DNA of 32,000 nt from Pseudoalteromonas tetraodonis. GTDB taxonomy: Bacteria; Pseudomonadota; Gammaproteobacteria; Enterobacterales; Alteromonadaceae. Below the pieces are notes generated by a model. That model was given only the letters and a program-made list of their open reading frames with translations. It had not been told where the DNA came from and did not search any database. Positions 4,436 through 24,241 of the stretch are shown one piece after another; the stretch's first letter is position 1, and each line of letters starts with the position of its first letter. Where the stretch lies: contig NZ_CP011042.1 of assembly GCF_002310835.1 (NCBI RefSeq), positions 120,001 to 152,000 of the forward strand, written 5' to 3'. The position numbers and the translations under genes were made by a program.

Positions 4436-4735
4436 ATGAGATCTGAACAAGCATTAAAACTGGCGCGTCGATTGGGTGATTTAATTCGCCAGCATCGTAC
4501 TTTACTTTATACCCAGAGCACGTTCGCTAAGATGATTGGTGTATCTCGCTCCACGGTACAAAAGCTTGAGCAAGGGGAGGTAGTAAAAAGCGATATATTG
4601 TTTGAATCCCTTGTTGTACTTCAATTGCAAGGCTCATTACTGGATGAAATTAACGAGCTTGCCGCAGATGTGGGCGGTTATAATGCAAGACAGCGTAAAA
4701 GCAATAAAACTCAGGTGATTAACGATGACTTCTGA
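4436..4735 (+). CDS. hipB: HipB-like XRE-family HTH antitoxin
   Basis: 99 aa. The HTH is QSTFAKMIGVSRSTVQKLEQGE. It overlaps the downstream HipA-family gene by 11 nt. Confidence 0.8.
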   Translation: MRSEQALKLARRLGDLIRQHRTLLYTQSTFAKMIGVSRSTVQKLEQGEVVKSDILFESLVVLQLQGSLLDEINELAADVGGYNARQRKSNKTQVINDDF

Positions 4736-5930
4736 AGCCTATGTATTTATTGACGGTTTAGAAGACAACCCGGTAATTTGTGGTTTTTTTAAGTTAAATA
4801 CACAAACAGGCCGAGGTGAGTTTAATTATGGTAAAAGTTACCTTGCGCGCTCTGATGCGTTTGCGCTCGATCCGCTGCATTTACCATTACAGCCTGGCAT
4901 CGTTAGTTATTCTGCCAATAAAGGTGTGTTTGGGGTGTTAAGTGATGCGGGGGCTGATTCGTGGGGGCGTAAGCTTATACTGTCGCTACATAATACCAAA
5001 CCAAAAAATGAGCTAGAATTTTTACTCGCAGGCTCTGGGTATGGTGTTGGCGCCTTGGTATTTAGTTTGTCGCGCAGCGCATCAAAACATAAAGCGAATA
5101 AAAATACTTTAGCCGATTTAGCCTTATTGGATCAAGCAAAGGACGATTTGCTCGCCAATAAAACGATTTCACAGGAAGCAAAAAAAGCCTTTGAATTTGG
5201 TCAAAGCATGGGGGGAGCAAGACCTAAAACCTCTGTGAAAATTGACCAAAAACTTTATTTGGCAAAGTTTAATCGTCAAGACGATTTGTTTAATTTAGCT
5301 AGGGCTGAGCATGGCGCTATGTGTATGGCTAATGAATTGGGGATTCGCACTGCAAATACCCGTATTCATGAAACAGAAAATGGCGATGTTCTGTTAGTTG
5401 AACGTTTTGATGTAAGCGATGACTTACCAACTCATCACTTTTTAAGCGCCAATAGCTTATTACAAAAACCAAAAGTCGCGATAAACGACTTAGCAACATA
5501 CTATAGCTACGGTGAATTGGCTGAATTTATTCGCCACCACACAGGTGAGTTCGCTGCTGATGCTACAGAGCTCTACAAGCGAATGGTATTTAACGTATTT
5601 ATTGGTAATACTGATGATCACAGCCGAAATCATGCATTTTTGTATCACTTTTCAGGGCAAACGTGGCGTATGAGCCCCGCTTATGATATTACCCCTATTA
5701 ATAACTCAAAGCAGCATGGCATAGGGCTTGGTGATGATGGCCGATATGCTAGTATCGATAATTTACTGTCGCAAGCCAAACGCTTCGGCCTCAACAAGGC
5801 TCAAGCAACAAAAATAATTGCCGAGGTTGAGAGCTATACTCGCCAGTGGCCAGCGCACTTTAAACGTTTTGCTAATATCAGTGATATTGACATAAAACGC
5901 TTAGAAAGCGTGATACCCTCTATAAGTTAA
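4725..5930 (+). CDS. hipA: HipA-family serine/threonine kinase toxin
   Basis: 401 aa. It has a GGARPKTS phosphate-binding loop, the NTDDHSRNHAF catalytic motif and MSPAYDITP (Mg-binding Asp). The HipA N-terminal coupling region is present. Confidence 0.9.
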   Translation: MTSEAYVFIDGLEDNPVICGFFKLNTQTGRGEFNYGKSYLARSDAFALDPLHLPLQPGIVSYSANKGVFGVLSDAGADSWGRKLILSLHNTKPKNELEFLLAGSGYGVGALVFSLSRSASKHKANKNTLADLALLDQAKDDLLANKTISQEAKKAFEFGQSMGGARPKTSVKIDQKLYLAKFNRQDDLFNLARAEHGAMCMANELGIRTANTRIHETENGDVLLVERFDVSDDLPTHHFLSANSLLQKPKVAINDLATYYSYGELAEFIRHHTGEFAADATELYKRMVFNVFIGNTDDHSRNHAFLYHFSGQTWRMSPAYDITPINNSKQHGIGLGDDGRYASIDNLLSQAKRFGLNKAQATKIIAEVESYTRQWPAHFKRFANISDIDIKRLESVIPSIS

Positions 5931-7345: not shown

Positions 7346-8836
7346 TTATTCTTTTGTTTGCATGTTTTTTGCGCGTTCTTCTGCATCGATGAGTGCTTGT
7401 GATTTAGGCGCGCGTTTTTTTTCTTCTATTTTTGGTTTTTGTGGTGAATTTGGATCCCAGCTTTCATCAAGCGATAAATTAGCAAATGGATTGCTGCTTT
7501 GTGGTGAGTTATCAGGCTTACTTGGCTCTTCAGGGGCAACCTTTACTTGCTCAGGCATTACTTTTATTTTTTTAGTTGGTAGTGGCGCGTCGGGATCGAA
7601 AGTGCGTACTTCTGGCTCTTTAAAGTCGTGTTCAGTGGTTGAGCTTAATGATGAACGCTGCGTTTTTGCAGGATGGAAATCAGCTTGTGGCTGATGGGGT
7701 ACAATGGGTTCAGGTGCGCTGTGTGAAGGCTTTATAGGCGCTTCTTGTTGTACCTTTTTGATTGGCTGATTTATAGGATTACGCTGAATTTTGGTTTGTT
7801 TGGCTTCGGGGTCAAAATCTCTTACTTGTGGCTCGGCAAACTCTGTTGCATTTTTTATCCGCTCTAAGGTTGCTTTAGCAGCTGCTTCAAACTCTGCCGT
7901 GTTAGGCTCCGGCTTTATTTTCACTGTATTAACTCGACTAGAATCAGGCTCTTTACCCTTGCTTTCGACGGCTGGGTTTTGCAGAACAGAGCCAGTCACC
8001 ATCGGCTCAGTAACAACACTGTGAGTTTGATCATTGTCGTGACTTGGGGACATTTGCAATGGTATGCCAGTATCAGCCGTTTGTTTATTTTGCTTAATAT
8101 TGCGCAGGCGCATTAATACCACAACCGTAATTACCACAATTAACAATAGTGCCACACTTGGTAATACTAGCGAGATTATATTAGCCCCTTTGGGCATTGA
8201 AGAGGCAATAACGGCTGTTTGCTCGCTGGCTTTTATAGTGATAGGTACGGCGGTTTGTGCAGGCTCAACGGTGGCTTTTTTTACCTCTGGTTGCGTATTT
8301 TCCTCAGTGTTTGATAATTCACTGGCCGGTATTTTGCCGGGCTGTGCATTTTTTTCAGAAGCGCTGCTTTGTTCAGCCGCTGCTGTTACATTGACTTGTG
8401 ACTCATCAGGTGCTGTTGTGGTTGATGCTACTGGGGCATTTTTTTTAGCTTGCTCTATAGTTTGAGTGGCGCTTTTTTCGATTACATTATTTTGGGGTCC
8501 AGTTGCACTTTGCTCAGTTGCAGCGTCTGGGAACGTTGACTGTAAAGTGGGTTCTGTTTGTTGTGATTTTACAACCTCCGGGGTCGATTGTTCAATAACC
8601 GGCTGCGGTTTAGGCTTTGGTACTGGCAAAGTGCGTGCCGCTTGCGGATCACTGCAGTTTTTTTCAAAGTCTCGCGCAGCATTACGGTATTTACGGCTGG
8701 CTTTATTATTGCTGTGTTGCTGCATTTCTTGTTTTATAAGAATACACATAGCTTCGTTATAAGCGGCACTGCTGGCACTATAAAACAAAGCAAAACAAAA
8801 AAGTAAGCAACTCAGTAACGGTTTCATAAAACTCAA
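7346..8836 (-). CDS. Bitopic low-complexity (P/Q/E/T/K-rich) membrane protein
   Basis: 496 aa. It has the signal peptide MSFMKPLLSCLLFCFALFYSASSA and one central TM segment, IISLVLPSVALLLIVVITVVVLM. The internal repeat is EFAEPQVRDFDPEA / DFKEPEVRTFDPDA. Confidence 0.7.
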   Translation of the reverse strand: MSFMKPLLSCLLFCFALFYSASSAAYNEAMCILIKQEMQQHSNNKASRKYRNAARDFEKNCSDPQAARTLPVPKPKPQPVIEQSTPEVVKSQQTEPTLQSTFPDAATEQSATGPQNNVIEKSATQTIEQAKKNAPVASTTTAPDESQVNVTAAAEQSSASEKNAQPGKIPASELSNTEENTQPEVKKATVEPAQTAVPITIKASEQTAVIASSMPKGANIISLVLPSVALLLIVVITVVVLMRLRNIKQNKQTADTGIPLQMSPSHDNDQTHSVVTEPMVTGSVLQNPAVESKGKEPDSSRVNTVKIKPEPNTAEFEAAAKATLERIKNATEFAEPQVRDFDPEAKQTKIQRNPINQPIKKVQQEAPIKPSHSAPEPIVPHQPQADFHPAKTQRSSLSSTTEHDFKEPEVRTFDPDAPLPTKKIKVMPEQVKVAPEEPSKPDNSPQSSNPFANLSLDESWDPNSPQKPKIEEKKRAPKSQALIDAEERAKNMQTKE

Positions 8837-8907: not shown

Positions 8908-9175
8908 TAGGGTCTGTTGACCTTTGCGGATTACAATTTGTTCAAACTAGGGGCGGTTTAATCGCGGCGCGAGGTTTGTAACCTAGTGGACTAAGTAAAA
9001 ACCGAGCAACAAAGAGTAAATCGCTCCTAGGCAGAACCCGAAGGGCAGCGCCTGTTTGGCATTGATGCTGCGTTATCGCCTATTTATGGGGAACAACCAC
9101 ACTACATAGGCTCTGCCTTGCCTAAATACCAAACAGACTGCTGCAAATTTAACCTTGAAAGGTCAACAGACCCTA
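8908..9175. mobile_element. 268-bp MITE-like non-autonomous element
   Basis: Perfect 18-bp terminal inverted repeats: tagggtctgttgaccttt (8908-8925) and aaaggtcaacagacccta (9158-9175). Read another way, these are 16-bp TIRs flanked by a TA/TA duplication. The element has no ORF. Confidence 0.6.
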
Positions 9176-10636
9176 GTCAATTACCATTAAGCTTCGGTAC
9201 TCGTCGTAAGCAAATTGATCGGTCATACCGCTAATGTAGTCTTGAATTAACCGACAGCGATAATAAAATTCATAGGCTGCAAAATGATCGGGCTCTTCTT
9301 GCATCGCATTTATGGCATGCTGATAGCTACTTAAATGCTTTTTAGAGAGCTTTTTAACGAGTCTCGATTCTATTAATAAGCGGTTGTCGCCATGCAATGC
9401 ACGTTTAAAGTCATCGCTACTCAAAAGCAGCAAAGGTTTATAACAATCGAGTAGGCCATTAATAATACGGTAGCCTTGCAGTTCGAGCTTTTCGACTTCT
9501 TTGTGCGAAAATACATGCTCAAGCGCGACTTGTTTGAGCGCTTGGGTTGCTGCATGCAGGTAGCTGCGATCTTCTAATAATGCATGGTTAAAGTCGCCAT
9601 GATAAATTGGCTCTATGTTTTCAATAAAGCGTTTTGCGGCATGGTTTACTAGCGGGTGCAGTAATGACACGCGTAAATAAATAAAAAACTCACTATTAAA
9701 ATTAAAGGGCTGTGCTTGTGCCCGTTCTATGGCGTAGTTTATGGCGTCGTCCACAAAGCTTTGGTGTTGGGTGTCGTTAAGGGCTAAGTTAATTAGCGCT
9801 TTTTGATACTGCTTTTTTAGTTGCTCGCATAATAACTGTGTGGTGATAATGTCTTTTTCTACGGCGTCTTCTATGTCGGCAAGGCAATAAGAAATATCGT
9901 CAGCGGCTTCCATAATATAACTGGCAGGGTGACGGCAATAGGGCTCCATTTTCAGCTCAGTTTGCAGTGCCTCTACAAAGCTTTTTTCACTGTAGTAATA
10001 CCCCACTTTTTTCATAATGTAGTTTTTATTTTGAGGAATATCTTGCTTCGCTAAACTTGCAGGGCGGGTGTACTTTAAAATAGCGGCAGTTTGGCTATAG
10101 GTTAAATTTAGGCTCAGCAAAGAGTGAATAATACGTATTCCTTGGGCGTTGCCTTCAAAGCTGCAAATATCTTGGGCTAAATGTTTAAAAATAACGCCAA
10201 TGCTGCTGTTTGTTGTTTGGCAACGCTCAGGCGTAATGCTGGCTAAATTAGCATTAAACCAATTATTAATAGCCGCTTCGCCAAAGTGACCAAATGGTGG
10301 GTTACCAATGTCGTGCATCAGGCAGGCCATTTCTACTAGGGTTTCTAGTGGGCGCTCTAAACCCGACAAACCATATTCTTTTTGTTGCTGGTAATTTAAA
10401 TTGGCAAAAATGCGCTGCACAATAAAGCGGCCAACTTGCTGAACTTCTAATGAGTGAGTTAGGCGCGAACGCACTGCCGCGTTGCGCTCCAGCGGAAATA
10501 CTTGGGTTTTTTGTTGCAGCCGACGAATGGCTGCACTATTAATAATTCGGCCACGATCGCTCTCAAGCGCCATTTGTAAATTGGCAGTGGTGCGCTGCAT
10601 ACGTGCAGGGGTTACTTTGCTACTGAAGTTGATCAT
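9173..10636 (-). CDS. dgt: dGTP triphosphohydrolase (Dgt-type HD-domain dNTPase)
   Basis: 487 aa. RLTHSLEVQQVGR...CLMHDIGNPPFGHFGE is the HD-domain signature of Dgt. Length and C-terminus (DEYRSLMVID) are consistent with enterobacterial-type Dgt. Confidence 0.9.
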   Translation of the reverse strand: MINFSSKVTPARMQRTTANLQMALESDRGRIINSAAIRRLQQKTQVFPLERNAAVRSRLTHSLEVQQVGRFIVQRIFANLNYQQQKEYGLSGLERPLETLVEMACLMHDIGNPPFGHFGEAAINNWFNANLASITPERCQTTNSSIGVIFKHLAQDICSFEGNAQGIRIIHSLLSLNLTYSQTAAILKYTRPASLAKQDIPQNKNYIMKKVGYYYSEKSFVEALQTELKMEPYCRHPASYIMEAADDISYCLADIEDAVEKDIITTQLLCEQLKKQYQKALINLALNDTQHQSFVDDAINYAIERAQAQPFNFNSEFFIYLRVSLLHPLVNHAAKRFIENIEPIYHGDFNHALLEDRSYLHAATQALKQVALEHVFSHKEVEKLELQGYRIINGLLDCYKPLLLLSSDDFKRALHGDNRLLIESRLVKKLSKKHLSSYQHAINAMQEEPDHFAAYEFYYRCRLIQDYISGMTDQFAYDEYRSLMVID

Positions 10637-10785: not shown

Positions 10786-12006
10786 ATGAAGTTGTGGATC
10801 ACTAAGGTAATGTGTTTTTGCCTTTTATTGGGTGTGAATAGTGCGTTTGCCGCTAAAGAGCAAACGGTTGTTATGATCTCTATTGATGGCTTGCGTTGGG
10901 ATTACATTGAAAAGCACGGTGCGCCTAATTTAAAAGCAATGGGTGAGCAAGGCGTAAGAGCGCAAAAAATGCAGCCTGTTTATCCTACTAAAACGTTTCC
11001 AAATCATATTTCGGTGATCACCGGTTTACTGCCAGTTAACCATGGCATTGTAGATAATAAGTTTTGTGACAAAGCGCGCAATAATGAATGCTACAGCATG
11101 GGGAAAGGACAAAAAGACAGTACCTGGGTACGCGGCACGCCACTGTGGAATTTAGTTAAAATGCATGGGCTTAAATCGGCGGTATACTTTTGGCCTGAGT
11201 CGGATGCGCGCTTTAATGGTATGACGCCTGACTATTATTTTCATTACTCTAAACAAGGTGACTACCAAGACCGAATTGATCAAATCATTCAATGGTTAAG
11301 CTTACCTAAAGCACAGCGCCCACGTTTTGTGGCGAGTTATTTTTCGTTAGTCGATAGCATGGGGCATGAATATGGCCCTGATGCGGTGCAAACGCGTGAT
11401 GCCGTTAAACAGCTAGATGCGCTGATGGGGCAATTAAAAACCCGCTTGAGTAAGTTAGAGCAAGAGGTAAATCTGGTGATTGTGTCTGATCATGGTATGG
11501 CACAAGTTGAGCCTGAGCAGAGCATTGTTGTGAGCAGCTTACCTAAAGATGATAATTTTATGGTTGTTAATACCGGTCCTCGATTACTCATTTATACTAA
11601 AAGCGATGCTAAAAATGCAGATGTAGAGGCTTATAAAGCCCGTTTACAACATGCAGCAAAAGGACGTTACACGGTACTAACAGAGGAGCAGCTTGCAGGA
11701 TATCACTATAATAAAGGCACTCGTGTGGGCGATATTGTGGTACAAACGACAGCGCCTGCGGTATTTAGCAGTAGTGCTAAAGTGCCTTACTTAGGAACGC
11801 ATGGCTATGCCTATACCGATGATATGGCAGCGACATTTATTGCTACCGGGCCGGCGTTTAAAAAAGGGGTGAGCATTGAGCGAGTGAATAATTTAGATAT
11901 TTACCCTGTGCTTGCTAAGGTGATGGGTTTAAAGCTAATGAGTAAAGTGGATAGCGATGGTAAAACCTTACTCCCTGCCATACAACAGAAAATGATTAAT
12001 CATTAA
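10786..12006 (+). CDS. Secreted nucleotide pyrophosphatase/phosphodiesterase (NPP, alkaline-phosphatase superfamily)
   Basis: 406 aa with a signal peptide. VVMISIDGLRWDY...YPTKTFPNHISVITG...DSMGHEYGP...VSDHGM are NPP metal-site and nucleophile motifs. Confidence 0.85.
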   Translation: MKLWITKVMCFCLLLGVNSAFAAKEQTVVMISIDGLRWDYIEKHGAPNLKAMGEQGVRAQKMQPVYPTKTFPNHISVITGLLPVNHGIVDNKFCDKARNNECYSMGKGQKDSTWVRGTPLWNLVKMHGLKSAVYFWPESDARFNGMTPDYYFHYSKQGDYQDRIDQIIQWLSLPKAQRPRFVASYFSLVDSMGHEYGPDAVQTRDAVKQLDALMGQLKTRLSKLEQEVNLVIVSDHGMAQVEPEQSIVVSSLPKDDNFMVVNTGPRLLIYTKSDAKNADVEAYKARLQHAAKGRYTVLTEEQLAGYHYNKGTRVGDIVVQTTAPAVFSSSAKVPYLGTHGYAYTDDMAATFIATGPAFKKGVSIERVNNLDIYPVLAKVMGLKLMSKVDSDGKTLLPAIQQKMINH

Positions 12007-12941: not shown

Positions 12942-13655
12942 TTAAAAAGAGGGCGTGTTTTCAGCACGAGGTGCAAATGGATCTATGTCATCCGCATTTT
13001 TTGGTGCAGGTTCACCAACCTGATGCTCTATATGTGTTTTATATAGGTCACGCTTAGCTGCAATCCAGCCATATTGACCTTTACTTTCAAAAACATAATT
13101 ACCACTTGGGGCTGTAAATTGACCGTAAACCGCATCATTGCCAACGGTTAATATGGTGGTGTGCATTGCGCCATTGGCCCCAATAACCTGACCAACAATG
13201 CTTTTATCGCCGTTACTGGCACGGGTAACATTGGTTATTTCAGCGCTGTAGGTTTCTGCGGTTTGCGGTATTGCAAGGTCAAAATTATCACCCGTTTTGA
13301 GGGTTTTTAGCGCCGCTAGATCAAATTCTATGTAGGCTTCATTTTGTAAATCGGTTGGCAGTACTTTTGCCGCTTTAAGTATTTCTTTAGCCTTTGCTGA
13401 AGGTTTATTAATTGCGTCAAATGAGTTTGAAGGTACGTTTGATTCAATGTTAGCGGGTTTTGCTGCAATAGGGTCTTTACTCATATCAATGGGCGATGGG
13501 TTATGTGTTTTTTTTGCAAACTCAGAATCAACAGGAACGATATCAATAGCAATGGGCGCTTCTACCTCATCGGTTTTTTTCTGATCATTAAGCAGCGTAT
13601 ACAAGGCAAATACAGACAAAGGAATAGCGATAGTTAAAACAATGTAACGTTTCAT
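12942..13655 (-). CDS. Membrane-anchored or secreted hypothetical protein, upstream partner of the metzincin
   Basis: 237 aa with the N-terminal anchor MKRYIVLTIAIPLSVFALYTLL. It lies 72 nt upstream of the protease gene on the same strand. The C-terminal part (FDLAIPQTAETYSAEITNV...GQVIG...LTVGNDAVYGQF...GNYVFE) resembles, from memory, the N-terminal pro-region of long M72-like proteases. Confidence 0.6.
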   Translation of the reverse strand: MKRYIVLTIAIPLSVFALYTLLNDQKKTDEVEAPIAIDIVPVDSEFAKKTHNPSPIDMSKDPIAAKPANIESNVPSNSFDAINKPSAKAKEILKAAKVLPTDLQNEAYIEFDLAALKTLKTGDNFDLAIPQTAETYSAEITNVTRASNGDKSIVGQVIGANGAMHTTILTVGNDAVYGQFTAPSGNYVFESKGQYGWIAAKRDLYKTHIEHQVGEPAPKNADDIDPFAPRAENTPSF

Positions 13656-15339: not shown

Positions 15340-16359
15340 TTATAGCATTGGTTTTAACACATCAAACATGGCGTCTATGTGATCGTCACGGTCGTTAAGC
15401 GCTGCTATATAACGGTATTTTTCGCCGCCGGCTTCTTCAAAAATCTCTCGGTTTTCACCTTCTAATTCTTCAAGTGTTTCTAGGCAGTCGGCGCTAAAGG
15501 CAGGGCTGATAATAGCCACATCTTTAATTCCTTCGCCAGGTAAGCTCTCAAGAGTTGCATCTGTGTAAGGTTTTAACCATTCAGCTTTACCAAAACGGCT
15601 TTGGAAAGTGGTGATCACTTTGTCTTTATCTAGGCCTAGCTTTTCTACCACTAAACGGGTGGTTTGTTGGCATAGGCAGTGATAGGGGTCGCCATTATCT
15701 AAAAACTGTTTAGGCATGCCGTGATACGAAAACACCATTTTTTGTGGCATGCCGTGTTTTTCTAAATCTTCGCTAATGCTGTTAGCAAGCGACTCTAGGT
15801 AGGTTGGGTTTTTGTGATACCCATTTACAAAGTGTAGCTCAGGCACCCAGCGCCATTTTTTTAATACATTTGCCACGGCATCAAATGTTGAGCCTGTGGT
15901 TGGACTTGAATATTGTGGGTAAAGTGGTAACACAATAATGCGGGTTAAGCCTTTATCTCTGAGCTCTTCAAGGCCCGCTTCGATTGATGGATTACCATAG
16001 CGCATCGCCATAACCACTTCGGTGTTGGTATAGCCGTGCTGTTTTAATAAGGCATTTAATTTAATGCTTTGTTGGCGTGTAATGTGGGTCAGTGGCGAGC
16101 CATTTTCAGTCCATATGCTTTTATACAATTTAGCTGAGCGCTTTGGGCGTATACGCAAAATGATGCCATGCAGAATAAGCATCCACACAATACGCGGTAT
16201 TTCTACGATACGAGGGTCTGACAAAAACTCACGTAAGTAAATACGCAATGCACTTGCTGTTGGGGCATCGGGGCTACCTAAGTTGGTCAGAAGTATTCCC
16301 GTTTTTTGGTTAAAACGCCCGTCGTGGGGATTGTCGGTAACGGCAGAAAATCGCGACAC
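15340..16359 (-). CDS. hemH: Ferrochelatase
   Basis: ORF track 15340..16374 begins at TTG. The sequence ttgAAGGAGcacaacGTG places a consensus RBS 6 nt before GTG at 16359, so I prefer that start. GILLTNLGSPDAPT...LREFLSDPRIVE...PLYPQYS are ferrochelatase motifs. Confidence 0.9.
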   Translation of the reverse strand: MSRFSAVTDNPHDGRFNQKTGILLTNLGSPDAPTASALRIYLREFLSDPRIVEIPRIVWMLILHGIILRIRPKRSAKLYKSIWTENGSPLTHITRQQSIKLNALLKQHGYTNTEVVMAMRYGNPSIEAGLEELRDKGLTRIIVLPLYPQYSSPTTGSTFDAVANVLKKWRWVPELHFVNGYHKNPTYLESLANSISEDLEKHGMPQKMVFSYHGMPKQFLDNGDPYHCLCQQTTRLVVEKLGLDKDKVITTFQSRFGKAEWLKPYTDATLESLPGEGIKDVAIISPAFSADCLETLEELEGENREIFEEAGGEKYRYIAALNDRDDHIDAMFDVLKPML

Positions 16360-16437
16360 GTTGTGCTCCTTCAAGCAATGGATTTATAGGTATCTATTTA
16401 GGCTTAGTATAACGAATAAAAGAGTATTTTAGATCAA

Positions 16438-17775
16438 TCATTTAGCCATTTTAACCATAATTCTAAATGGGGTCGGCTTTTTGGCTTCGAGTTGTTGTAG
16501 CTTAACAATCGATTTCGTATTGAAAATATGTCCTTTAGGCAAAAGCATAATACCTGTATGGCTGTGCAGTGAGTTTGCCAATATCATATTTTCTTCGAGT
16601 TCTTGTGCGCTCATCACCTTTATTGAACCAATAGAGCTGTCAGAGGCAATGAGTTTAGCGTGGCTGGCTTCAAGTGCATCGACAATACGCGGGTGGTATA
16701 AGCTGCCACTGTTTGATTTAATACTATTGAGCGCAAATTGATGGCGTTGTTTTGTTGTAAGTAACGGCTCACTTTGCTCGTAACTCTCCCAATAGTCACG
16801 AGCAACACTGAGCACCATAGCACCAATGGGAATATCGTTTTTAGCAAGTCCTTTGGGAATACCTTTGCCATTGTAGCGTTCGAATTGGTGGTAAATTGCA
16901 TCAGACACATCGCTTAAATGAGTCGCAGGCATGAGCATTAATTGTGAAATACTTGGGTGGGTGTAAAATGTTTTTCTTTGAACTTCATTAAGCTCGTTAA
17001 TGGGTTTGTTGTAAAGCTCAGGGTCCATAGCAAGTAAACCAATTTGAGCCAAATACCCCGCAATAGGCGCAAGTTCAATGCTTTTTTGCGATACGTTAAG
17101 GTAACGCGCTATTTGAGTACATGTACCGGCTATATTTTCTGCTCTTTTACCATCGAGATAGGGGTTTGCATTGATAAAATTATAAAGCAGTTCAACAGTA
17201 GATTGGTGCTCTCGTTTTTCACTTTCATTAGCGACTTCAAGTTTTTTTAATACGCTTCTTATTTGTTTTGTCCGCTTTTCGACGAGTTGCTCTAGGTTAG
17301 TATTCAGCTCTTTTAATTGTTCATTTTGCTGATTTACATGGCGCTGTAAAATCTCATTTTGCTTTTTGAGTCTAAACTTTTCGACGCCTGATTGGATAAC
17401 GCTAATTAAGTGATCGTTTTGCCAAGGCTTTTGCACGTAGGCGTGAATGCCTCCTTCATTAACAGCACTAATTGTTGACTCTAAATCAGAAAAACCAGTT
17501 AACAAAATACGCTGGCTATCGGGGGCAACTTTTCTTGCTTTAGCTAAAAACTCAGCACCACTCATTAGTGGCATACGCATGTCACTGATGACGACATCAA
17601 ACTGTTTTTTTTGCATTTTTTCAAGTGCATCATGGCCACTGGTTGAAACACTCACATCAAATTTATATTGGCGCAACAGTCGTACTAAAGATTTGAGTAC
17701 ATTGGCCTCATCATCTAGGCATAAAATGCTCGGCGGCTGTTCATTTAATTGCTCTAATACATCAATGTCCGTCAT
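16438..17775 (-). CDS. Response regulator: REC, coiled coil, then a degenerate HD-GYP domain (HnoD-like architecture)
   Basis: 445 aa. The REC domain reads ILCLDDE...VVISDMRMPLMSG...KPW. The C-terminal domain aligns to HD-GYP but reads YLAQIGLL where LHDIGK is expected, and YHQFERYNGKGIPKGL where HHERxDGxGYPxGL is expected. Confidence 0.85.
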   Translation of the reverse strand: MTDIDVLEQLNEQPPSILCLDDEANVLKSLVRLLRQYKFDVSVSTSGHDALEKMQKKQFDVVISDMRMPLMSGAEFLAKARKVAPDSQRILLTGFSDLESTISAVNEGGIHAYVQKPWQNDHLISVIQSGVEKFRLKKQNEILQRHVNQQNEQLKELNTNLEQLVEKRTKQIRSVLKKLEVANESEKREHQSTVELLYNFINANPYLDGKRAENIAGTCTQIARYLNVSQKSIELAPIAGYLAQIGLLAMDPELYNKPINELNEVQRKTFYTHPSISQLMLMPATHLSDVSDAIYHQFERYNGKGIPKGLAKNDIPIGAMVLSVARDYWESYEQSEPLLTTKQRHQFALNSIKSNSGSLYHPRIVDALEASHAKLIASDSSIGSIKVMSAQELEENMILANSLHSHTGIMLLPKGHIFNTKSIVKLQQLEAKKPTPFRIMVKMAK

Positions 17776-18014
17776 TTTTTTACCAATAAGATAGTGAGTT
17801 GTATGGCTAAATTTAGTCTAAGCTTTGGTTGTAAACAACTGATTTATTTAAGCCGTTTCCAAGTATAGTATTTGAACAATACGCAAATCATTGTTGTTAG
17901 GATTAAATAAGGTAACGCTGTGTTGTAGTTTGTATCTATTTTTACTGTAATTCTCTGTAATTCAACGTGAAGATGAGTACTGATATATAAGCAAAATCGA
18001 GAGTGTGACATAGC

Positions 18015-19424
18015 TTACTCAATTTGTTTGTTGGCATGTAATATGGTCAGTACGTCGTCAGTTAATGTGGGCTTCTTAGGTAACGTAATATAAAAAGCAG
18101 TGCCTTGGTTTAACTGGCTTTCAACCCGAATTTGGCCACTATGTTGCTCTATAATTGCTTTACTTATAGCTAGCCCTAACCCTGTGCCTTGGCCTATTGG
18201 TTTTGTAGTATAGAAAGGGTCAAAAATTTTATTTAATTTGTCCTCATCAATTCCACTGCCATTATCGGCAATGGTTATATAGGCATTTTTTTTATCGGCT
18301 TTAGTGGTAATAGTGATGACACCGACTTTGTCGCAAATGGCTTGAGCGGCGTTAAAAAATAAATTTAAAAATACCTGAGAGAGCTGGGTCGAACGTCCTG
18401 TGATGATAACGGGTTCTGTGTCGTAGTGTTTTTCAACGTTGGCGTTGTATTTAATTTCGTTCCAGGCAACACGTAATGTGTTATCAATGAGCTCTGTTAT
18501 ATCAATATCGCCAATTTGGGTTTGATCCGGATGAGCAAATTGCCTTAATCCTTGAACAATCTCCTTAACACGATCAGCCCCTTCAGTCATTTCAGCAATG
18601 ATATCGCTTGAGTCTGTTTGTAATTCATCAAATTGATAATGTTGTAGCGTATCTGCTAATGTTTGCTGCGCTATGGCTTTTTCTGCTTTGAGTGCGTTAA
18701 TTAAATGACTAAATTGCTCAAGGTTGTAAGCCAAATTTTGGATATTACTGACAATGTAGCTTAAAGGGTTGTTTATTTCGTGTGCAACGCCTGCCGCCAT
18801 TTGCCCTAACGAAGCCATTTTTTCAGAGTTGATTAACACTTGTTCAATGTTACTTTGTTTTTCTTCCATTTCTTTTTGTTTAACAAGTAAATTTCGTTTT
18901 TCAAATTGTGAAATTGTATTCCCTGCAAAGCTGACAAAGCGTTGCATTAAAGTAATATCGTGCTGATTAAATGCGCCAATTGTTTCTGAAAAAATATAGA
19001 GCTGGTAGCTTTCTGTACTGGTACTTACTGGGGTGGTGAGCATTGCATGCTGCGAATGCCAAAAAGGATCAGTTACTTGCCAATCAGGAAGTTGGTGTAA
19101 GTTAAATACATTTTTAATGTCTCTATTGGGTTTATTTAGTGCTTTGAGTTGGGTAATTATTTCATCACTTTGTGGGTGCGATGCTGTAATTAACGTCGTG
19201 GTTTCATTGCTGGGGTTTATTTTAATTAAAATAGCCGCAGAAAAAGCAATGGCTTGCTGCAAAATATCAAAAAACTCAGTGAGTAAGGTTTCAGTTTTGT
19301 CGTTCTTTAAAATGGCATCTAAGCCATTTAAGATCAGGCTATTAAAGGCACGGTTTTCTTCAAGTGCTAAATTATGAACTTGTAATAAGTGTAGCTTTTC
19401 TAACAGTATTTCATTGCTACTCAT
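18015..19424 (-). CDS. Cytoplasmic sensor histidine kinase (GAF-like N-terminus, HisKA, HATPase_c)
   Basis: 469 aa. The H-box is AAGVAHEINNPLSY, the N-box is LNLFFNAAQA, G1 is DNGSGI and G2 is GTGLGLAIS. No TM segments. The start overlaps the FIST gene stop (ATGA, 19421-19424). Confidence 0.9.
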   Translation of the reverse strand: MSSNEILLEKLHLLQVHNLALEENRAFNSLILNGLDAILKNDKTETLLTEFFDILQQAIAFSAAILIKINPSNETTTLITASHPQSDEIITQLKALNKPNRDIKNVFNLHQLPDWQVTDPFWHSQHAMLTTPVSTSTESYQLYIFSETIGAFNQHDITLMQRFVSFAGNTISQFEKRNLLVKQKEMEEKQSNIEQVLINSEKMASLGQMAAGVAHEINNPLSYIVSNIQNLAYNLEQFSHLINALKAEKAIAQQTLADTLQHYQFDELQTDSSDIIAEMTEGADRVKEIVQGLRQFAHPDQTQIGDIDITELIDNTLRVAWNEIKYNANVEKHYDTEPVIITGRSTQLSQVFLNLFFNAAQAICDKVGVITITTKADKKNAYITIADNGSGIDEDKLNKIFDPFYTTKPIGQGTGLGLAISKAIIEQHSGQIRVESQLNQGTAFYITLPKKPTLTDDVLTILHANKQIE

Positions 19425-20605
19425 TCAGGGCCACCAAAGATTTCGCATGAAATCATTAAATTACCATGTTTACTTGTTGAATCGCTGAATGTGCCGAGCT
19501 CCCCAAAAGTAAAGCCCATAATAAACGGTGTGTTGGGTAATTGTGCTGCAATAGACTCTTTAACTTCTTGCATGGCGTCTTTAATTGACAGCATACAGCC
19601 TCCGCAAAAAATGATAATGGCGCCGGTAATATTTTTTATGGCATGGAGTTCTGCCAATTTAGTTAATGAGGTGACAACCATATCACCTCGTTTAATTAAT
19701 TGCTCTGGGCTTCCCGAAGCTAAATAAATAGTATCGCCAACGCTTAAATTTGAAAATAATTCTAGCGTGCCATTTTCAGCTACCGCTGGATGACTTAACA
19801 GTAATCGAGGGATTTCATCATTTAAAGAAAGGGCGCTTGCCAATGGGGTCATTGTTGATTGAGCAAGGATATTTCCTGAAGTTAAGGCGTTTAAACCTAT
19901 GTTTTTTCGCCACTGATTATAAACATCAAACGCGGGCTGGTTATCAATTGTTTTTAATAAACGACCATCCACGTCTGTCACTGTACCTTGCTGGTCGGTT
20001 TTATCGTAGCCTGAACTATAAAAGCCGAATGTTTCTACACTGGGGTATAACACCGCAATAATAAAACCTTGTTGGTATACATTTTCAGTATCGCTAAAAC
20101 ACCACTTTGCTGAAATATCGTTGTCGGCGCAACTTCCTCCAAAAACAGGTATACGCTGCCCGATAGCATCTTGAATTCCCTGCAAAACCAGCTCCTCATT
20201 ACCTGGGACTTGAAAGCACCAGACCATTTTTGGGGCGAGGCCTGCTTGGCCTGCATTAGCAATGGCTTTAAGTACGGTTTGAGCAGCATTTTCTCTTAGA
20301 TTATCGGCTGCATTACAACTTGCAACACCATAATGACCATTTGAGTCTTTAATCGAGAATAAACTAATACTTTGCTCATTTAATGATAGGGTTTGGTCGG
20401 TTGATGACCCAAGACACGAAGAGATGATTAAACAATTGCGAGTGTTTTTTAAAAAGCCTGGCTGGTTATTAAAAAGGTATTTAATGGTATCGGTTGTAGC
20501 AAACCCAAGCAGTAAATCTGGGCTGTTGTTCGTAAACTGACTAACAGGTTGGATAAATTTATCTATATCGCTGCCGTGAGTGTGAAAAGTATCAATGGCG
20601 AACAT
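19421..20605 (-). CDS. FIST-domain sensor protein (FIST_N + FIST_C; NosP-like size and context)
   Basis: 394 aa and cytoplasmic. IPVFGGSCADN, VTDVDGRLLKTIDNQPAFDVY, IIFCGGCM and MGFTFGELG match my memory of FIST_N/FIST_C conserved blocks. It is translationally coupled to the kinase. Confidence 0.7.
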   Translation of the reverse strand: MFAIDTFHTHGSDIDKFIQPVSQFTNNSPDLLLGFATTDTIKYLFNNQPGFLKNTRNCLIISSCLGSSTDQTLSLNEQSISLFSIKDSNGHYGVASCNAADNLRENAAQTVLKAIANAGQAGLAPKMVWCFQVPGNEELVLQGIQDAIGQRIPVFGGSCADNDISAKWCFSDTENVYQQGFIIAVLYPSVETFGFYSSGYDKTDQQGTVTDVDGRLLKTIDNQPAFDVYNQWRKNIGLNALTSGNILAQSTMTPLASALSLNDEIPRLLLSHPAVAENGTLELFSNLSVGDTIYLASGSPEQLIKRGDMVVTSLTKLAELHAIKNITGAIIIFCGGCMLSIKDAMQEVKESIAAQLPNTPFIMGFTFGELGTFSDSTSKHGNLMISCEIFGGPE

Positions 20606-21078
20606 AGATGCCCCTTGGTAATAACAATAGCCACAACCGTGGATGTTTTAATTATTAATAATCGCTTAGAATTTATTCTAGACTATATATTAAATAGAAT
20701 GAATTTAGCTGCTAATTATTAGTCGATATCACCTTTGCCCACGAGTTTTATTTGTCGTGCTGCGTTTAAATTTATGTTAGCGTTGCGTTAAAATCAAGCT
20801 AATAATATTGACATTTTCAGCCCCGGTAAAGCTGAATAAGGTTGCTAATTACTTATATCCTCATCAGTGTATAGAAACGCTGGATCAATGTAGGAGGCCT
20901 AAAAGGGCACTCATTAGCTGAGCGAGGTAATTATAGCTACGAGTAAATAACTTTATTGCTTATGTGTTTAGGCACAACATGCTGATGTGAATTTATTTAA
21001 ATCATTAAGTAACGATACATGGATGAGCTGTGTGAACAATTTACTAGGCACAAGTAAAACTCATTTGAGGTATAAATA

Positions 21079-23087
21079 GTGGCTTTGCGAATTTTATTGG
21101 TAGACGATGAACTCAATGTATTGAAATCTTTAAAACGAGTACTTGTTCGTTCAGGTTATGATGTAATGACGGCATCCACTGGTTTTGAGGCACTTGAAAT
21201 ATTAGCGGCTAATCAAGTTGAGATAATTATTACTGACTTTAGAATGCCAGAAATGAACGGCGCTGATTTATTACGCCAAGTTAAAATTAATTGGCCCGAT
21301 TGCGTAAATTTAGTGCTCAGCGGGTATGCTGATTTTAAGTCTGTGGTTGAGTTATTAAATCAGGGATTAGTATTTCGTTTTTTAGAAAAGCCATGGGTTG
21401 ATAGTGAGCTACTTGAAAACATTAGCGAGGCGAAAGTAAAATATGAACAGCGCCGAGCTAAAAGAGTAAGAGATCAGTTATTAATGGGCAGTATGTCGGC
21501 ATTAATAGAAATAGACAATGACGGCATTATTAATCGTTTTAATGCACCTGCCGCTGAAATCATTTCAGATATTCATTTATACGAAAACAAACACCTCGCC
21601 AATTTAGATACAGCTCAAAACAAAGCGGTAAGTCAGTCGTTTGTTGATAAGCAAAGCAGTACACTTTTTATTAATTATGCTTGCACTTCTGATCTAGCTA
21701 AAAGCGAAGAAGTTATGATTGAGCGTTGTTTACATGACGGTTTTTGCCAGCTTTTAAAGTTATCAATTAACTCAAATAGTATGAGTAATATTTTTCAACT
21801 TACCAGAACACCATCAGTGGTGACTAACGAGTCTGATTTTTATCATCATTTAGCCCTGTGTGAAGCGAATAAAGAATGTTATGCCCTCGTTTATATAGGT
21901 ATTGCGCAGTTTCAATTAATCAATGATCTGTTAGGCGCAGAAGATGGCAGCCACCTTATAAAATTGGTTTTGGAGGTGCTAAAAGGCGTATCAAAGCAAC
22001 CGGTGAAAGTTCTTCATAAGAGCGCCGATCGGTTTGTATTATTTGTTCCTGAAATTAAATCTGATAGTGAAATTTTAACCGATTTAAATAAGGCGATGAA
22101 TGATCTGAAAAAACTACTCCCTAGTAAATATAACGATGCCCATGTGCAGCTTTATGGCGTGTATGGGTTGTTTCCTGAAGATAATTTGAAAGGAAAAGAA
22201 CTCGTTAATCAAATGCAGTTGACGATGAATTACCAAGTAAGTGAACAACAGCGTATTTGTTCTCGGTTTGATCCTCAGCTGGTAGCCGATTATAAAAAGA
22301 ACTTTGAGTTAAGCCGTTTATTATTAACAGCGGTAAGTAATGATGAACTGTCGTTGCGTTTTCAGCCAAAAGTAGACACTAAAACAGGGCAAATATTGAT
22401 TGCTGAGACGCTTATTCGCTGGTATGAGCCGAGTAAACATGGCTGGGTACCGCCAGCTCATTTTATCCCGATTGCTGAATGTGATGGCCAAATTATATCA
22501 ATAGGACGCTGGGTTATTTCTCAAAGTTGTAAAACGTTAAAATATTGGACAGAGAACAATACAGGCGTGCGTGTATTGGCAATTAACTTATCTGCTAGAC
22601 AATTAAAAGATGATCCCGATTGGATTGACTTTATGCTCGAGTGTTTAAGTCGCAATAATTTAGAGTCATCACAGTTGGTTTTTGAGTTAACAGAAACCTA
22701 TTTAATAGAAGATTTTACTATTTGCGAACAACAGTTAATAAAATTAAGAACGTGGGGTTTAAGTTATTGATTGATGACTTTGGTGTAGGTTACTCATCAC
22801 TTGGCTATCTTTCTAAGTTGCCAGTAGATGGTGTTAAACTAGATAGAGCCCTTATTGCTGATATAGAGTCGTCTTTAGCGATGCAAAGTATGATTCGTAA
22901 TATTACGCGTATGTCACATGATCTAAATCTTAAAGTTGTTGCTGAGGGAGTAGAAACAGCCTATCAATGTGAATTAATTAAAAAGTTAGGGTGTGACTAC
23001 ATACAAGGCTATTACTATAGTGAGCCTTTAGAGCAGGATGATTTTTGTAATTACTTAAGCCATTTCAATTCTCAAGGTGCGCAATGA
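21079..23087 (+). pseudogene. REC, PAS-like, degenerate GGDEF and EAL phosphodiesterase gene, split by a 1-nt frameshift (ORFs 21079..22770 and 22722..23087)
   Basis: GTG start with RBS gagg. The REC domain reads LLVDDE...IITDFRMPEMNG...KPW. The GGDEF position reads KSADRF. The EAL motifs are split: IAETLIRW, NLSARQL and FELTETY lie in frame 1, while LLIDDFGVGYSSLGYL, KLDRALI, AEGVET and QGYYYSEP lie in frame 2. Adding one A in ttaAgaac (about 22744-22750) would give ...QQLIKLKNVGFKLLIDDFG. Confidence 0.75.
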
Positions 23088-24241
23088 GTTCAATAGCGGT
23101 AGTCATACTAGATGACGATGCTTTTTTATTAAAAGTATTACAAAGAACTATTCATCGAGCCTTTCCAGAGGTTGATATAATGACAACCTCTGATATTGAT
23201 GAATTTTGGCAACTACTAAACACTAAGCAAGACCTAGATTTAGTATTAAGTGATTATTTAATGCCGCAAATGAATGGTTTGGATGTTTTAGAGCAATGCT
23301 CGTCGCAAAACCCTTACCCAGTGAGGGCATTACTTACTGGCGATATGACACTGAGTACCATGATGCGACAGCCTAATGTTGTGCATGCTTATCTTGCTAA
23401 ACCGTTTAATGAGGCAGACATAACCGCACTTTTTAACAATGTGGCGGCGTTAAAGTCGTTACCCTTTGCTTTTAATGTGCGCAGGCAGTTAGGGGCTATG
23501 ATCAGCTTTCCTGTTTATCCTCTTATTTTGAAAGAACTCAGGGAGTTAGTACAAAGCGATGAATTTGATTTACACGACATTGCCCATGTTGTTTCTCAAG
23601 AGCCAATAATAACTGCTAAATTGTTGCAACTTGCAAACTCATCTTATCTTGGGTTTGTAAGGCCAACATCGTCAATTGATGAAGCTGTGTCGAGGCTCGG
23701 AACAACGATATTAATGGCTATCACCACTTCTTTATTAGTTGCCAAAAATTTTGAATCATCCATTCCTTCGGCTATCCATGAGAAACAATTGAATATAGCA
23801 GCGAATTACGCTAGTTGTGTTAAGCGTTTTGCTAAGCAGGCAGGTTTTAACTTACATGATCAAGAACTATTATTTTCAGTGGCGTTATTGAGTTTTGTTG
23901 GCAAAATTATTTTGCTGTCTCAAGGGGAAAGTGAAGCGTATTTTGAGCATGAAAAAGCCGTGAGTGAAGAATATGCTAGTTCTAACTTTATTTCGGCCTA
24001 TGTTTTAAAGTTATGGGGATACGACACGAAAATGTGTAGCTTATTAATGAGTTGCCATGATTTAGCCGCCACTGATGATAATGAGTTAATTCCGCTTAAT
24101 CATACGTTATTTATTGTTAGGCAAATTCTTTTTGATAAACACTCCCCCATGCAGTTACGCGCATACTGTGACTCAAAAGGTGTAGACCCTATACTTTGCC
24201 ATCTAATTAGTGAATTTGATTGGCATAGTTATACCTCTTAA
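23084..24241 (+). CDS. Response regulator with a C-terminal HDOD domain
   Basis: 385 aa. The REC domain reads VVILDDD...LVLSDYLMPQMNG...AKPF. The HDOD region reads FPVYPLILKELRELVQSDEFDLHDIAHVVSQEPIITAKLLQLANSSYLGF...IDEAVSRLG. The ATGA overlap with the upstream EAL gene is at 23084-23087. Confidence 0.8.
   Translation: MSSIAVVILDDDAFLLKVLQRTIHRAFPEVDIMTTSDIDEFWQLLNTKQDLDLVLSDYLMPQMNGLDVLEQCSSQNPYPVRALLTGDMTLSTMMRQPNVVHAYLAKPFNEADITALFNNVAALKSLPFAFNVRRQLGAMISFPVYPLILKELRELVQSDEFDLHDIAHVVSQEPIITAKLLQLANSSYLGFVRPTSSIDEAVSRLGTTILMAITTSLLVAKNFESSIPSAIHEKQLNIAANYASCVKRFAKQAGFNLHDQELLFSVALLSFVGKIILLSQGESEAYFEHEKAVSEEYASSNFISAYVLKLWGYDTKMCSLLMSCHDLAATDDNELIPLNHTLFIVRQILFDKHSPMQLRAYCDSKGVDPILCHLISEFDWHSYTS

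Follow-up and report, generated by a model that had tools for sequence, protein, structure and literature searches.

In the nitric oxide (NO)/cyclic di-GMP (c-di-GMP) network of Shewanella oneidensis, two kinases, HnoK and HnoS, feed three regulators: HnoB (an active phosphodiesterase), HnoD (an inhibitor of HnoB) and HnoC (a MerR-type repressor) (PMC6335343, PMC8738867, PMC9938897). SO_2539 to SO_2541 have been described together with the second kinase, HnoS, as one network (PMC6335343). In Burkholderia, the nosRPK genes encode a FIST protein, NosP, which controls a soluble kinase that in turn phosphorylates NosR (PMC12570481). Here, we analyze a locus at positions 16438-24241 of a 32,000-nucleotide stretch of Pseudoalteromonas DNA (the window, to which all coordinates refer), where genes for a FIST protein, a histidine kinase and three receiver (REC) proteins lie together. 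Judging from sequence, this locus is likely orthologous, in Pseudoalteromonas, to the NosP branch of the S. oneidensis network (SO_2538 to SO_2543) and related to Burkholderia nosRPK, because its proteins are full-length homologues of those of the published cluster and share their gene neighbourhood. It is a degraded further representative of a known system and itself adds little; since the network has already been dissected in Shewanella and Burkholderia, the value of the window locus as such is limited. Two outputs have been lost genetically in this strain, through a decayed hnoC and a deletion in hnoB; what is left intact comprises sensor, kinase and a pair of non-catalytic receivers.

Sensor, kinase and receivers of the locus

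An initial annotation of the locus had called the domains of its five genes (Table 1), and Pfam searches bore out the FIST, HisKA, HD, EAL and HDOD calls. The domain sets are Response_reg with HD_5 (nosR/hnoD type), HisKA with HATPase_c (kinase), FIST with FIST_C (nosP type), Response_reg with GGDEF and EAL (hnoB type), and Response_reg with HDOD. The coordinates of the open reading frames (ORFs) agreed with the ORF list, and direct reading of the letters confirmed the two ATGA overlaps, one joining the FIST gene to the kinase gene and the other joining hnoB to the REC-HDOD gene. In each of the three receivers, the acidic pocket and the phospho-acceptor Asp are retained, along with Thr/Ser and Lys.

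At least 80 loci (the listed loci below) emerged when an alignment of FIST sequences was used to scan species-representative genomes, and the window domains were mapped onto the ORFs of these loci with phmmer. S. oneidensis itself and most Pseudoalteromonas genomes lie outside these loci, and S. oneidensis was covered instead by membership in clusters of at least 90% and by exact-protein look-ups. The Shewanella cutis proteins share such clusters with AAN55569 (HnoB), AAN55570 (HnoC), AAN55571 (HnoD, that is, SO_2541) and AAN55572 (FIST) of S. oneidensis MR-1; because AAN55571 is SO_2541, AAN55572 is SO_2542. With 370, 658, 192, 441 and 121 aa, the S. cutis proteins have exactly the lengths tabulated for SO2538, SO2539, SO2540, SO2541 and SO2547 (PMC2500165, Table 1). 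The window proteins are 34-41% identical to their Shewanella counterparts over the full length: 40% for FIST against AAN55572.1 (379 aa), 41% for NosR against HnoD AAN55571.1 (422 aa), 36% for the intact hnoB allele described below against MR-1 HnoB (678 aa), and, against the S. cutis proteins, 37% for REC-HDOD (324 aa) and 34% for the kinase. From gene order and accession order, we take SO_2542 and SO_2543 to be the genes studied as NosP and NahK. In the work of Nisbett et al. in 2019, whose title connects NosP with this network, NosP reportedly acts on its second kinase.

The gene neighbourhood is conserved as well. About 22 of the listed loci, in at least five genera, hold a full cluster (Alkalimonas, Rheinheimera, Alishewanella, Shewanella cutis, Arsukibacterium and Chromatiaceae), in which REC-HDOD, REC-GGDEF-EAL with degenerate GGDEF and a HTH_17-REC protein of ~190 aa are encoded on one strand, and REC-HD-GYP with degenerate HD-GYP, FIST and the kinase on the opposite one. 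The S. cutis gene architectures match this assignment by Pfam. About 10 further listed loci, all from Alteromonadaceae (Alteromonas, Aestuariibacter, Marisediminitalea and related metagenome-assembled genomes (MAGs)), consist of REC-HDOD, FIST and kinase only. Since the arrangement is repeated in dozens of genomes, it is not a product of chance. The neighbourhood check that the initial annotation had proposed thus came out in its favour, with the set syntenic in Alkalimonas, Rheinheimera, Alishewanella, Shewanella and Arsukibacterium, and its NosP/kinase, HnoB-like and HnoD-like readings stand as full-length homologues of MR-1 proteins in a conserved neighbourhood.

The HD-GYP protein matches HD_5 (E 8.6e-29) and, over model positions 1-422, the NCBIfam NosR model NF053512 with 514.4 bits (cutoff 400); the S. 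cutis HnoD orthologue scores 455 bits. Compared with the structures 4r8z and 5z7c in the Protein Data Bank (PDB), it has lost its metal ligands: the motifs are changed from HD to AQ, HHE to QFE and GYP to GIP, and neither the first His nor the Asp of ADxxDA is retained. S. oneidensis HnoD (SO_2541) likewise has HD changed to SE and HHE to QLE (bioRxiv 10.1101/2021.11.05.467447). The HD-GYP domain of the window protein, already called degenerate from the letters alone, is therefore predicted to be catalytically dead, and it is coupled to a receiver with DD, D, T and K in place. The 239-bp gap between nosR and the kinase gene (17776..18014, minus strand) probably holds a promoter of nosR itself: ~50-110 nt 5' of nosR align with the same region in three other Pseudoalteromonas loci (L089, L090 and L091), also where another module separates kinase and nosR. 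No minus-strand terminator-like site was found in this gap, and a simple promoter scan performed no better than on shuffled sequences. A 10-bp palindrome, CTAAATTTAG, also lies upstream of nosR (about 17810-17825) and differs from the palindrome upstream of nosP.

The kinase is predicted to be of the soluble nosK/nahK/hnoS type. Besides HisKA and HATPase_c, it carries the motif AHEINNP, which is shared with B. pseudomallei NosK (PMC12570481). Its N-terminal domain is conserved across 35 loci. The initial call of a GAF histidine kinase held for the kinase part, but GAF itself is matched only below threshold in Pfam searches at E <= 10 (GAF_2, E 0.089 here; GAF_3, E 0.0027 in the Alishewanella orthologue), and an AlphaFold2 (AF2) single-sequence model of this N-terminus, with a predicted local distance difference test (pLDDT) score of 52, was too poor to judge it.

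The sensor gene encodes a stand-alone FIST_N plus FIST_C protein upstream of a histidine kinase gene, overlapping it by ATGA, and is orthologous to MR-1 AAN55572.1 by identity and neighbourhood; its product is 98% and 97% identical to the proteins of P. issachenkonii and P. tetraodonis. Of the profile matches expected for NosP, those to Pfam FIST (E 7e-22) and FIST_C (E 3e-14) were found, but not the one to the NCBIfam NosP equivalog. Several points weigh against reading the locus as a NosP branch: (i) against this equivalog, NF041558, the window protein scores 22.4 bits with a cutoff of 450; (ii) a PDB sequence search with it returned nothing at E <= 1, and no solved bacterial NosP structure is known that would serve as a template for the haem pocket; (iii) nosR lies downstream of the kinase gene with its own upstream region, unlike the Shewanella gene order; and (iv) that the protein senses NO or haem we infer by homology.

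It is conceivable, if fairly unlikely, that what this FIST/kinase clade senses is not NO but, for example, redox state or a different small molecule, and that it resembles NosP in fold and wiring only. The low equivalog score would fit such a view, as would the generic ligand-binding nature of the FIST fold: a Foldseek search of the PDB with the AF2 model (pLDDT 89) found the FIST domain of human FBXO22 as the best match (template modelling score 0.48-0.56; the structure is a complex with BACH1), followed by Toblerone-fold hydrolases, none of these nearest structures with haem. As only a eukaryotic FIST domain and Toblerone-fold enzymes were matched, this comparison is uninformative on haem. 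The effect of NO on NosP-controlled kinases also varies in sign by species (PMC12570481). Against a different ligand, H272, C334, C337 and H380 are invariant in the clade, together with S63 and C64 (18 FIST homologues). Moreover, the S. cutis orthologue of SO_2542 misses the equivalog as well, with no match at E <= 1e-20, and the model therefore seems restricted to Pseudomonas-type NosP. Finally, the window protein is a full-length, syntenic homologue of MR-1 SO_2542, which, from gene order, is presumably the NosP of Nisbett et al. 2019. A NosP-type sensor remains our preferred reading.

By homology, such a sensor would bind its co-translated soluble kinase and tune the rate of autophosphorylation upon NO, and from the kinase, phosphate would move on to the receiver domains of the surrounding genes. 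HnoB would act as an EAL phosphodiesterase switched on by phosphorylation; HnoD/NosR, with its dead HD-GYP domain, would restrain HnoB until phosphorylation releases this restraint; and HnoC would repress the genes of the network. REC-HDOD may be a further target of the kinase, which is our own proposal.

Table 1. Coordinates of genes and other elements of the locus within the window
Feature	Positions	Strand	Details
REC/HD-GYP-type gene (nosR/hnoD)	16438..17775	-	ORF list, 445 aa
Histidine kinase gene	18015..19424	-	ORF list, 469 aa
FIST gene (nosP type)	19421..20605	-	ORF list, 394 aa
Perfect 14-bp palindrome TAGAATTTATTCTA upstream of nosP	20667..20680		Single exact match in the window; block conserved in Pseudoalteromonas
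hnoC relic (HTH_17-REC regulator)	20793..21075	+	Aligned to the intact 199-aa P. tetraodonis gene, L087:6213-6812
REC-GGDEF-EAL gene (hnoB type), split by a 1-nt deletion	21079..23087	+	ORF list, 21079..22770 (563 aa) plus 22722..23087 (121 aa); break ~22752/22753
G_GGT_TTA heptamer	22755..22761	+	X_XXY_YYZ register created by the deletion; -1 slip would restore the EAL frame (speculative)
REC-HDOD gene	23084..24241	+	ORF list, 385 aa

The cluster is flanked in the window by genes for ferrochelatase, BenE and a TonB-dependent receptor (Pfam). Among the scanned ORFs, all of them from the window, none encodes an H-NOX protein. Immediately downstream of nosR in the window is the ferrochelatase gene (hemH, 15340-16374, minus strand), whose product catalyses the last step in making haem, and it has this position in every Pseudoalteromonas locus seen (L002, L081, L082, L087 and L089-L091); hemH beside the cluster was not detected in other genera. 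Its place next to a presumed haem sensor is probably a coincidence. Elsewhere, the window encodes a HipA-family toxin kinase (4725-5930, plus strand; HipA_C, E 4e-47) and an HD-domain protein with HD_assoc (9173-10636, minus strand) that adjoins a type I phosphodiesterase/nucleotide pyrophosphatase (10786-12006, plus strand). Four ORFs of 158-496 aa are without a Pfam match at E <= 1e-5 (7346-8836, 1482-2192 and 12942-13655 on the minus strand, 2485-2961 on the plus strand); the position of 12942-13655 is occupied by BamI_lipocalin in the gene-call tables of related loci, and the exact 496-aa product has no record in the assembly collection.

Decay of hnoC and hnoB in Pseudoalteromonas

The 473 bp between nosP and hnoB (20606-21078) had been taken for a divergent promoter region in a locus with no DNA-binding output. 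Neither statement survived the comparison with relatives, as this region houses a decayed hnoC. In P. tetraodonis (L087), an intact 199-aa HTH_17-REC gene lies between hnoB and nosP; in the window, ~315 bp of its REC part are deleted, stops occur in every frame and the remainder has diverged, with RWINVGGLKGHSLAERGNY and KSLSNDTWMSCVNNLLG as recognisable remnants. A repressor with a MerR/excisionase-like helix-turn-helix and REC is thus present in the window as a relic only. The relic is common to the window and P. issachenkonii, whereas P. tetraodonis and a less closely related locus (L091) have kept hnoC intact. Another Pseudoalteromonas locus (L001) shows decay in a different pattern; it and L002 are two contigs of one Pseudoalteromonas MAG (M30B23), both with the locus. 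As L002 is frameshifted throughout, in every gene, the assembly is probably mixed or of poor quality. The palindrome upstream of nosP could be a leftover operator of the lost HnoC. An operator shared by nosP and nosR was considered and dropped, since TAGAATTTATTCTA has no second copy in the window.

In hnoB, one T has been lost (AACGTTGGGG to AACGTGGGG) relative to a near-identical contig with an intact 669-aa gene (L085). The 563-aa ORF has Pfam matches to REC, GGDEF (35 bits) and the N-terminal half of EAL, and the C-terminal half, covering profile positions 137-236 of 236, is encoded by the 121-aa ORF. The initial description as REC-PAS-like-GGDEF-EAL held for REC, GGDEF and EAL, and the GGDEF motif is degenerate as stated (SADRF), but the linker is without a Pfam match even at E <= 10. 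The catalytic EAL motifs are all present: ETL..R, N and ELTE upstream of the frameshift; DDFG, K, EGVE and QG downstream. Because the break falls between ELTE and DDFG, neither ORF can complete the active site, and the catalytic residues of an HnoB are not found together in one ORF.

The deletion is very recent, with only 2 differences in 2010 nt between the window and L085; P. issachenkonii (L081) and P. tetraodonis (L087) also have intact 669-aa genes. Synonymous divergence (dS) of hnoB from these two species is 0.30-0.33, above the 0.01-0.17 of the neighbouring genes, which suggests that recombination has exchanged the segment with hnoB and the hnoC relic for a more divergent allele. A separate disruption was seen in the hnoB orthologue of Alkalimonas delamerensis (L005:4000-5973), where an in-frame stop in DDFGCGYS*LSYL lies ~17 codons past the position of the window frameshift; this is either an independent second disruption (in a cultured strain) or a sequencing error. 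That the truncated product there also has 563 aa is a coincidence, the in-frame stop being a separate one.

Gene content varies further within the genus. A module of Hpt, PAS-kinase, CheC-CheX phosphatase and a 121-aa CheY-like receiver lies between kinase and nosR in two more distantly related loci, L091 (9624-12251) and L089 (9827-12044), and is not present in L090, L087, L081 or the window. The same module stands at the cluster end in a Shewanella locus (L012:13673-15899), its 121-aa receiver having the length listed for SO2547. Pseudoalteromonas thus shows a stepwise reduction, of which the window is the most reduced state in the genus, and the earlier view of a complete network assembled at one site does not fit a locus that has lost hnoC and the PAS-kinase/CheC-X/CheY module and whose hnoB is frameshifted. 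The missing DNA-binding output and the split EAL gene stem from decay, not design. As only non-catalytic receivers are intact, the direct c-di-GMP-hydrolyzing output of this strain is probably absent or very low. With and without hnoC, with and without the PAS-kinase/CheC-X/CheY module, and with near-isogenic strains one base apart in hnoB, the genus offers a natural reduction series that could reveal what each branch contributes.

Does this decay extend to the whole locus, such that it is a functionally dead remnant in this strain whose intact genes merely await mutations? The hnoC relic, the absent module of the relatives and an hnoB frameshift found in at least four assemblies would be expected of a remnant, and the frameshift is too recent to gauge later selection on the other genes. 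We nevertheless consider this improbable, since nosP, nosR and REC-HDOD are intact, with ratios of nonsynonymous to synonymous divergence (dN/dS) of 0.05-0.11 against the sister species, and the kinase gene is intact as well (0.078 against P. tetraodonis). Its ratio of 0.645 against P. issachenkonii is uninformative because dS is only 0.007, with very few substitutions; it is the one outlier among values of 0.02-0.13 for every gene compared with the two species, which indicate purifying selection. In addition, a reduced set can be functional, as Alteromonadaceae retain REC-HDOD, FIST and kinase as a stable three-gene unit.

The loss of HnoB might in principle be bypassed by a -1 slip at G_GGT_TTA, giving full-length protein at a low level with a change of one residue (L to W). 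The deletion does set X_XXY_YYZ in register, two codons downstream of the lost base and three codons before the stop. The heptamer is, however, ancestral Gly-Phe coding sequence and not an evolved signal, the downstream sequence shows no notable stimulatory RNA structure (z = -1.09), and the mutation is too young for a recoding site to have been moulded by selection. Without stimulation, bacterial ribosomes usually slip at a low rate. We give this bypass little credence, and functional recoding at the heptamer is unlikely.

That the frameshift arose in sequencing or assembly and hnoB is intact in the organism is hardly credible: only one base differs, next to TT/GGGG, but this is not a long homopolymer run, a separate run (DRR783986) yields the intact allele, and the deletion is real because it recurs in an NCBI assembly (GCA_007991235.1, whose contig BJXY01000008.1 carries the identical locus) and in three read sets that were assembled independently (DRR237655, SRR5690247 and SRR5690248, as Logan assemblies).

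REC-HDOD, the most constant partner of the FIST/kinase pair

The initial annotation had regarded REC-HDOD as an extra branch. Across the listed loci, it is instead the most constant partner of this FIST/kinase clade. Where FIST is followed by this kinase type, REC-HDOD lies within 7 kb at 31 of 35 loci, and the contigs of the remaining four end short of its expected position. It is also found at the full clusters L050 and L058, whose kinase N-terminus was unscored, and L024, whose contig stops before the kinase; none was found at the other 41 listed FIST loci, which have hybrid-kinase or EAL partners. The window protein matches Pfam HDOD with 80.6 bits (E 1.4e-22) behind its REC domain, and SF stands in place of the HD pair. 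D10-12, D57, T85 and K106 of the receiver are at least 90% conserved among 35 homologues, with identity to the window protein as low as 26% in some.

Among proteins with HDOD, which is considered a non-catalytic domain, SadB is able to bind c-di-GMP and GsmR has an effect on motility genes (PMC6543031, PMC4114195). In the searchable literature, we found nothing linking HDOD with NosP, FIST or H-NOX. We tentatively propose that the NosP-controlled kinase genuinely transfers phosphate to REC-HDOD, the counterpart of SO_2538, which may even be its primary and ancestral target. Without involving HnoB, the HDOD domain may then relay the NO signal to targets in biofilm formation or motility, or bind c-di-GMP. 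This proposal rests on the following observations: (i) REC-HDOD is present at every locus of the clade for which upstream DNA is available; (ii) it is the sole receiver in the three-gene Alteromonadaceae loci; and (iii) its phospho-acceptor residues are conserved. If true, it would account for the ability of strains to do without hnoB and hnoC while retaining the rest. An uncharacterized REC-HDOD protein as the most faithful neighbour of NosP and its kinase gives HDOD, a widespread domain without an established mechanism, a kinase and a signal for testing.

Comparison with described systems

Among HDOD proteins, GsmR of Xanthomonas campestris (REC-HDOD) and SadB of Pseudomonas (HDOD) resemble the window REC-HDOD protein in having a non-catalytic, HD-related output domain (PMC4114195, PMC6543031). 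They differ in having no known link to a FIST/NosP kinase, and SadB has YbaK instead of REC. The NosP-NahK-NarR system of Legionella pneumophila (PMC8846402) shares with the window the path from a FIST sensor through a kinase to a receiver with a GGDEF-EAL output, but NarR is a bifunctional active cyclase/phosphodiesterase and, unlike in the window, there is no HnoD-type or HDOD partner.

The nosRPK genes of B. pseudomallei and B. thailandensis (BPSS1646-1648; PMC12570481) come closer, as they combine a FIST sensor with a soluble kinase without a recognised sensor domain and with the H-E-I-N-N phosphatase motif. Their NosR, like the window protein that passes the NosR model, is a REC protein with a degenerate HD-GYP domain, although the degenerate motif reads HG/GTP in B. 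pseudomallei (PMC12570481) and AQ/QFE/GIP in the window. In contrast to the window, only three genes are present, in the order nosR-nosP-nosK, with no EAL, HTH or HDOD receivers.

The closest system is the MR-1 cluster. The window differs from it in the relic state of hnoC and the frameshift in hnoB, in the position of nosR/hnoD (downstream of the kinase gene in the window, upstream of nosP in MR-1), in lacking both the hybrid Cache kinase found downstream in MR-1 and the PAS-kinase/CheC-X/CheY genes, and in showing no hnoX/hnoK partner within its bounds. In both, however, REC-HDOD adjoins hnoB, the FIST and kinase genes overlap, and HnoD's HD-GYP domain is degenerate, as is HnoB's GGDEF domain. 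The combination that had been thought not to be characterized as a unit is therefore not new: SO_2538 (REC-HDOD), SO_2539 (HnoB), SO_2540 (HnoC), SO_2541 (HnoD), SO_2542 (NosP) and SO_2543 (HnoS/NahK) of MR-1 form the same set of proteins with the same architectures, within which SO_2539 to SO_2541 and HnoS are known as one network (PMC6335343).

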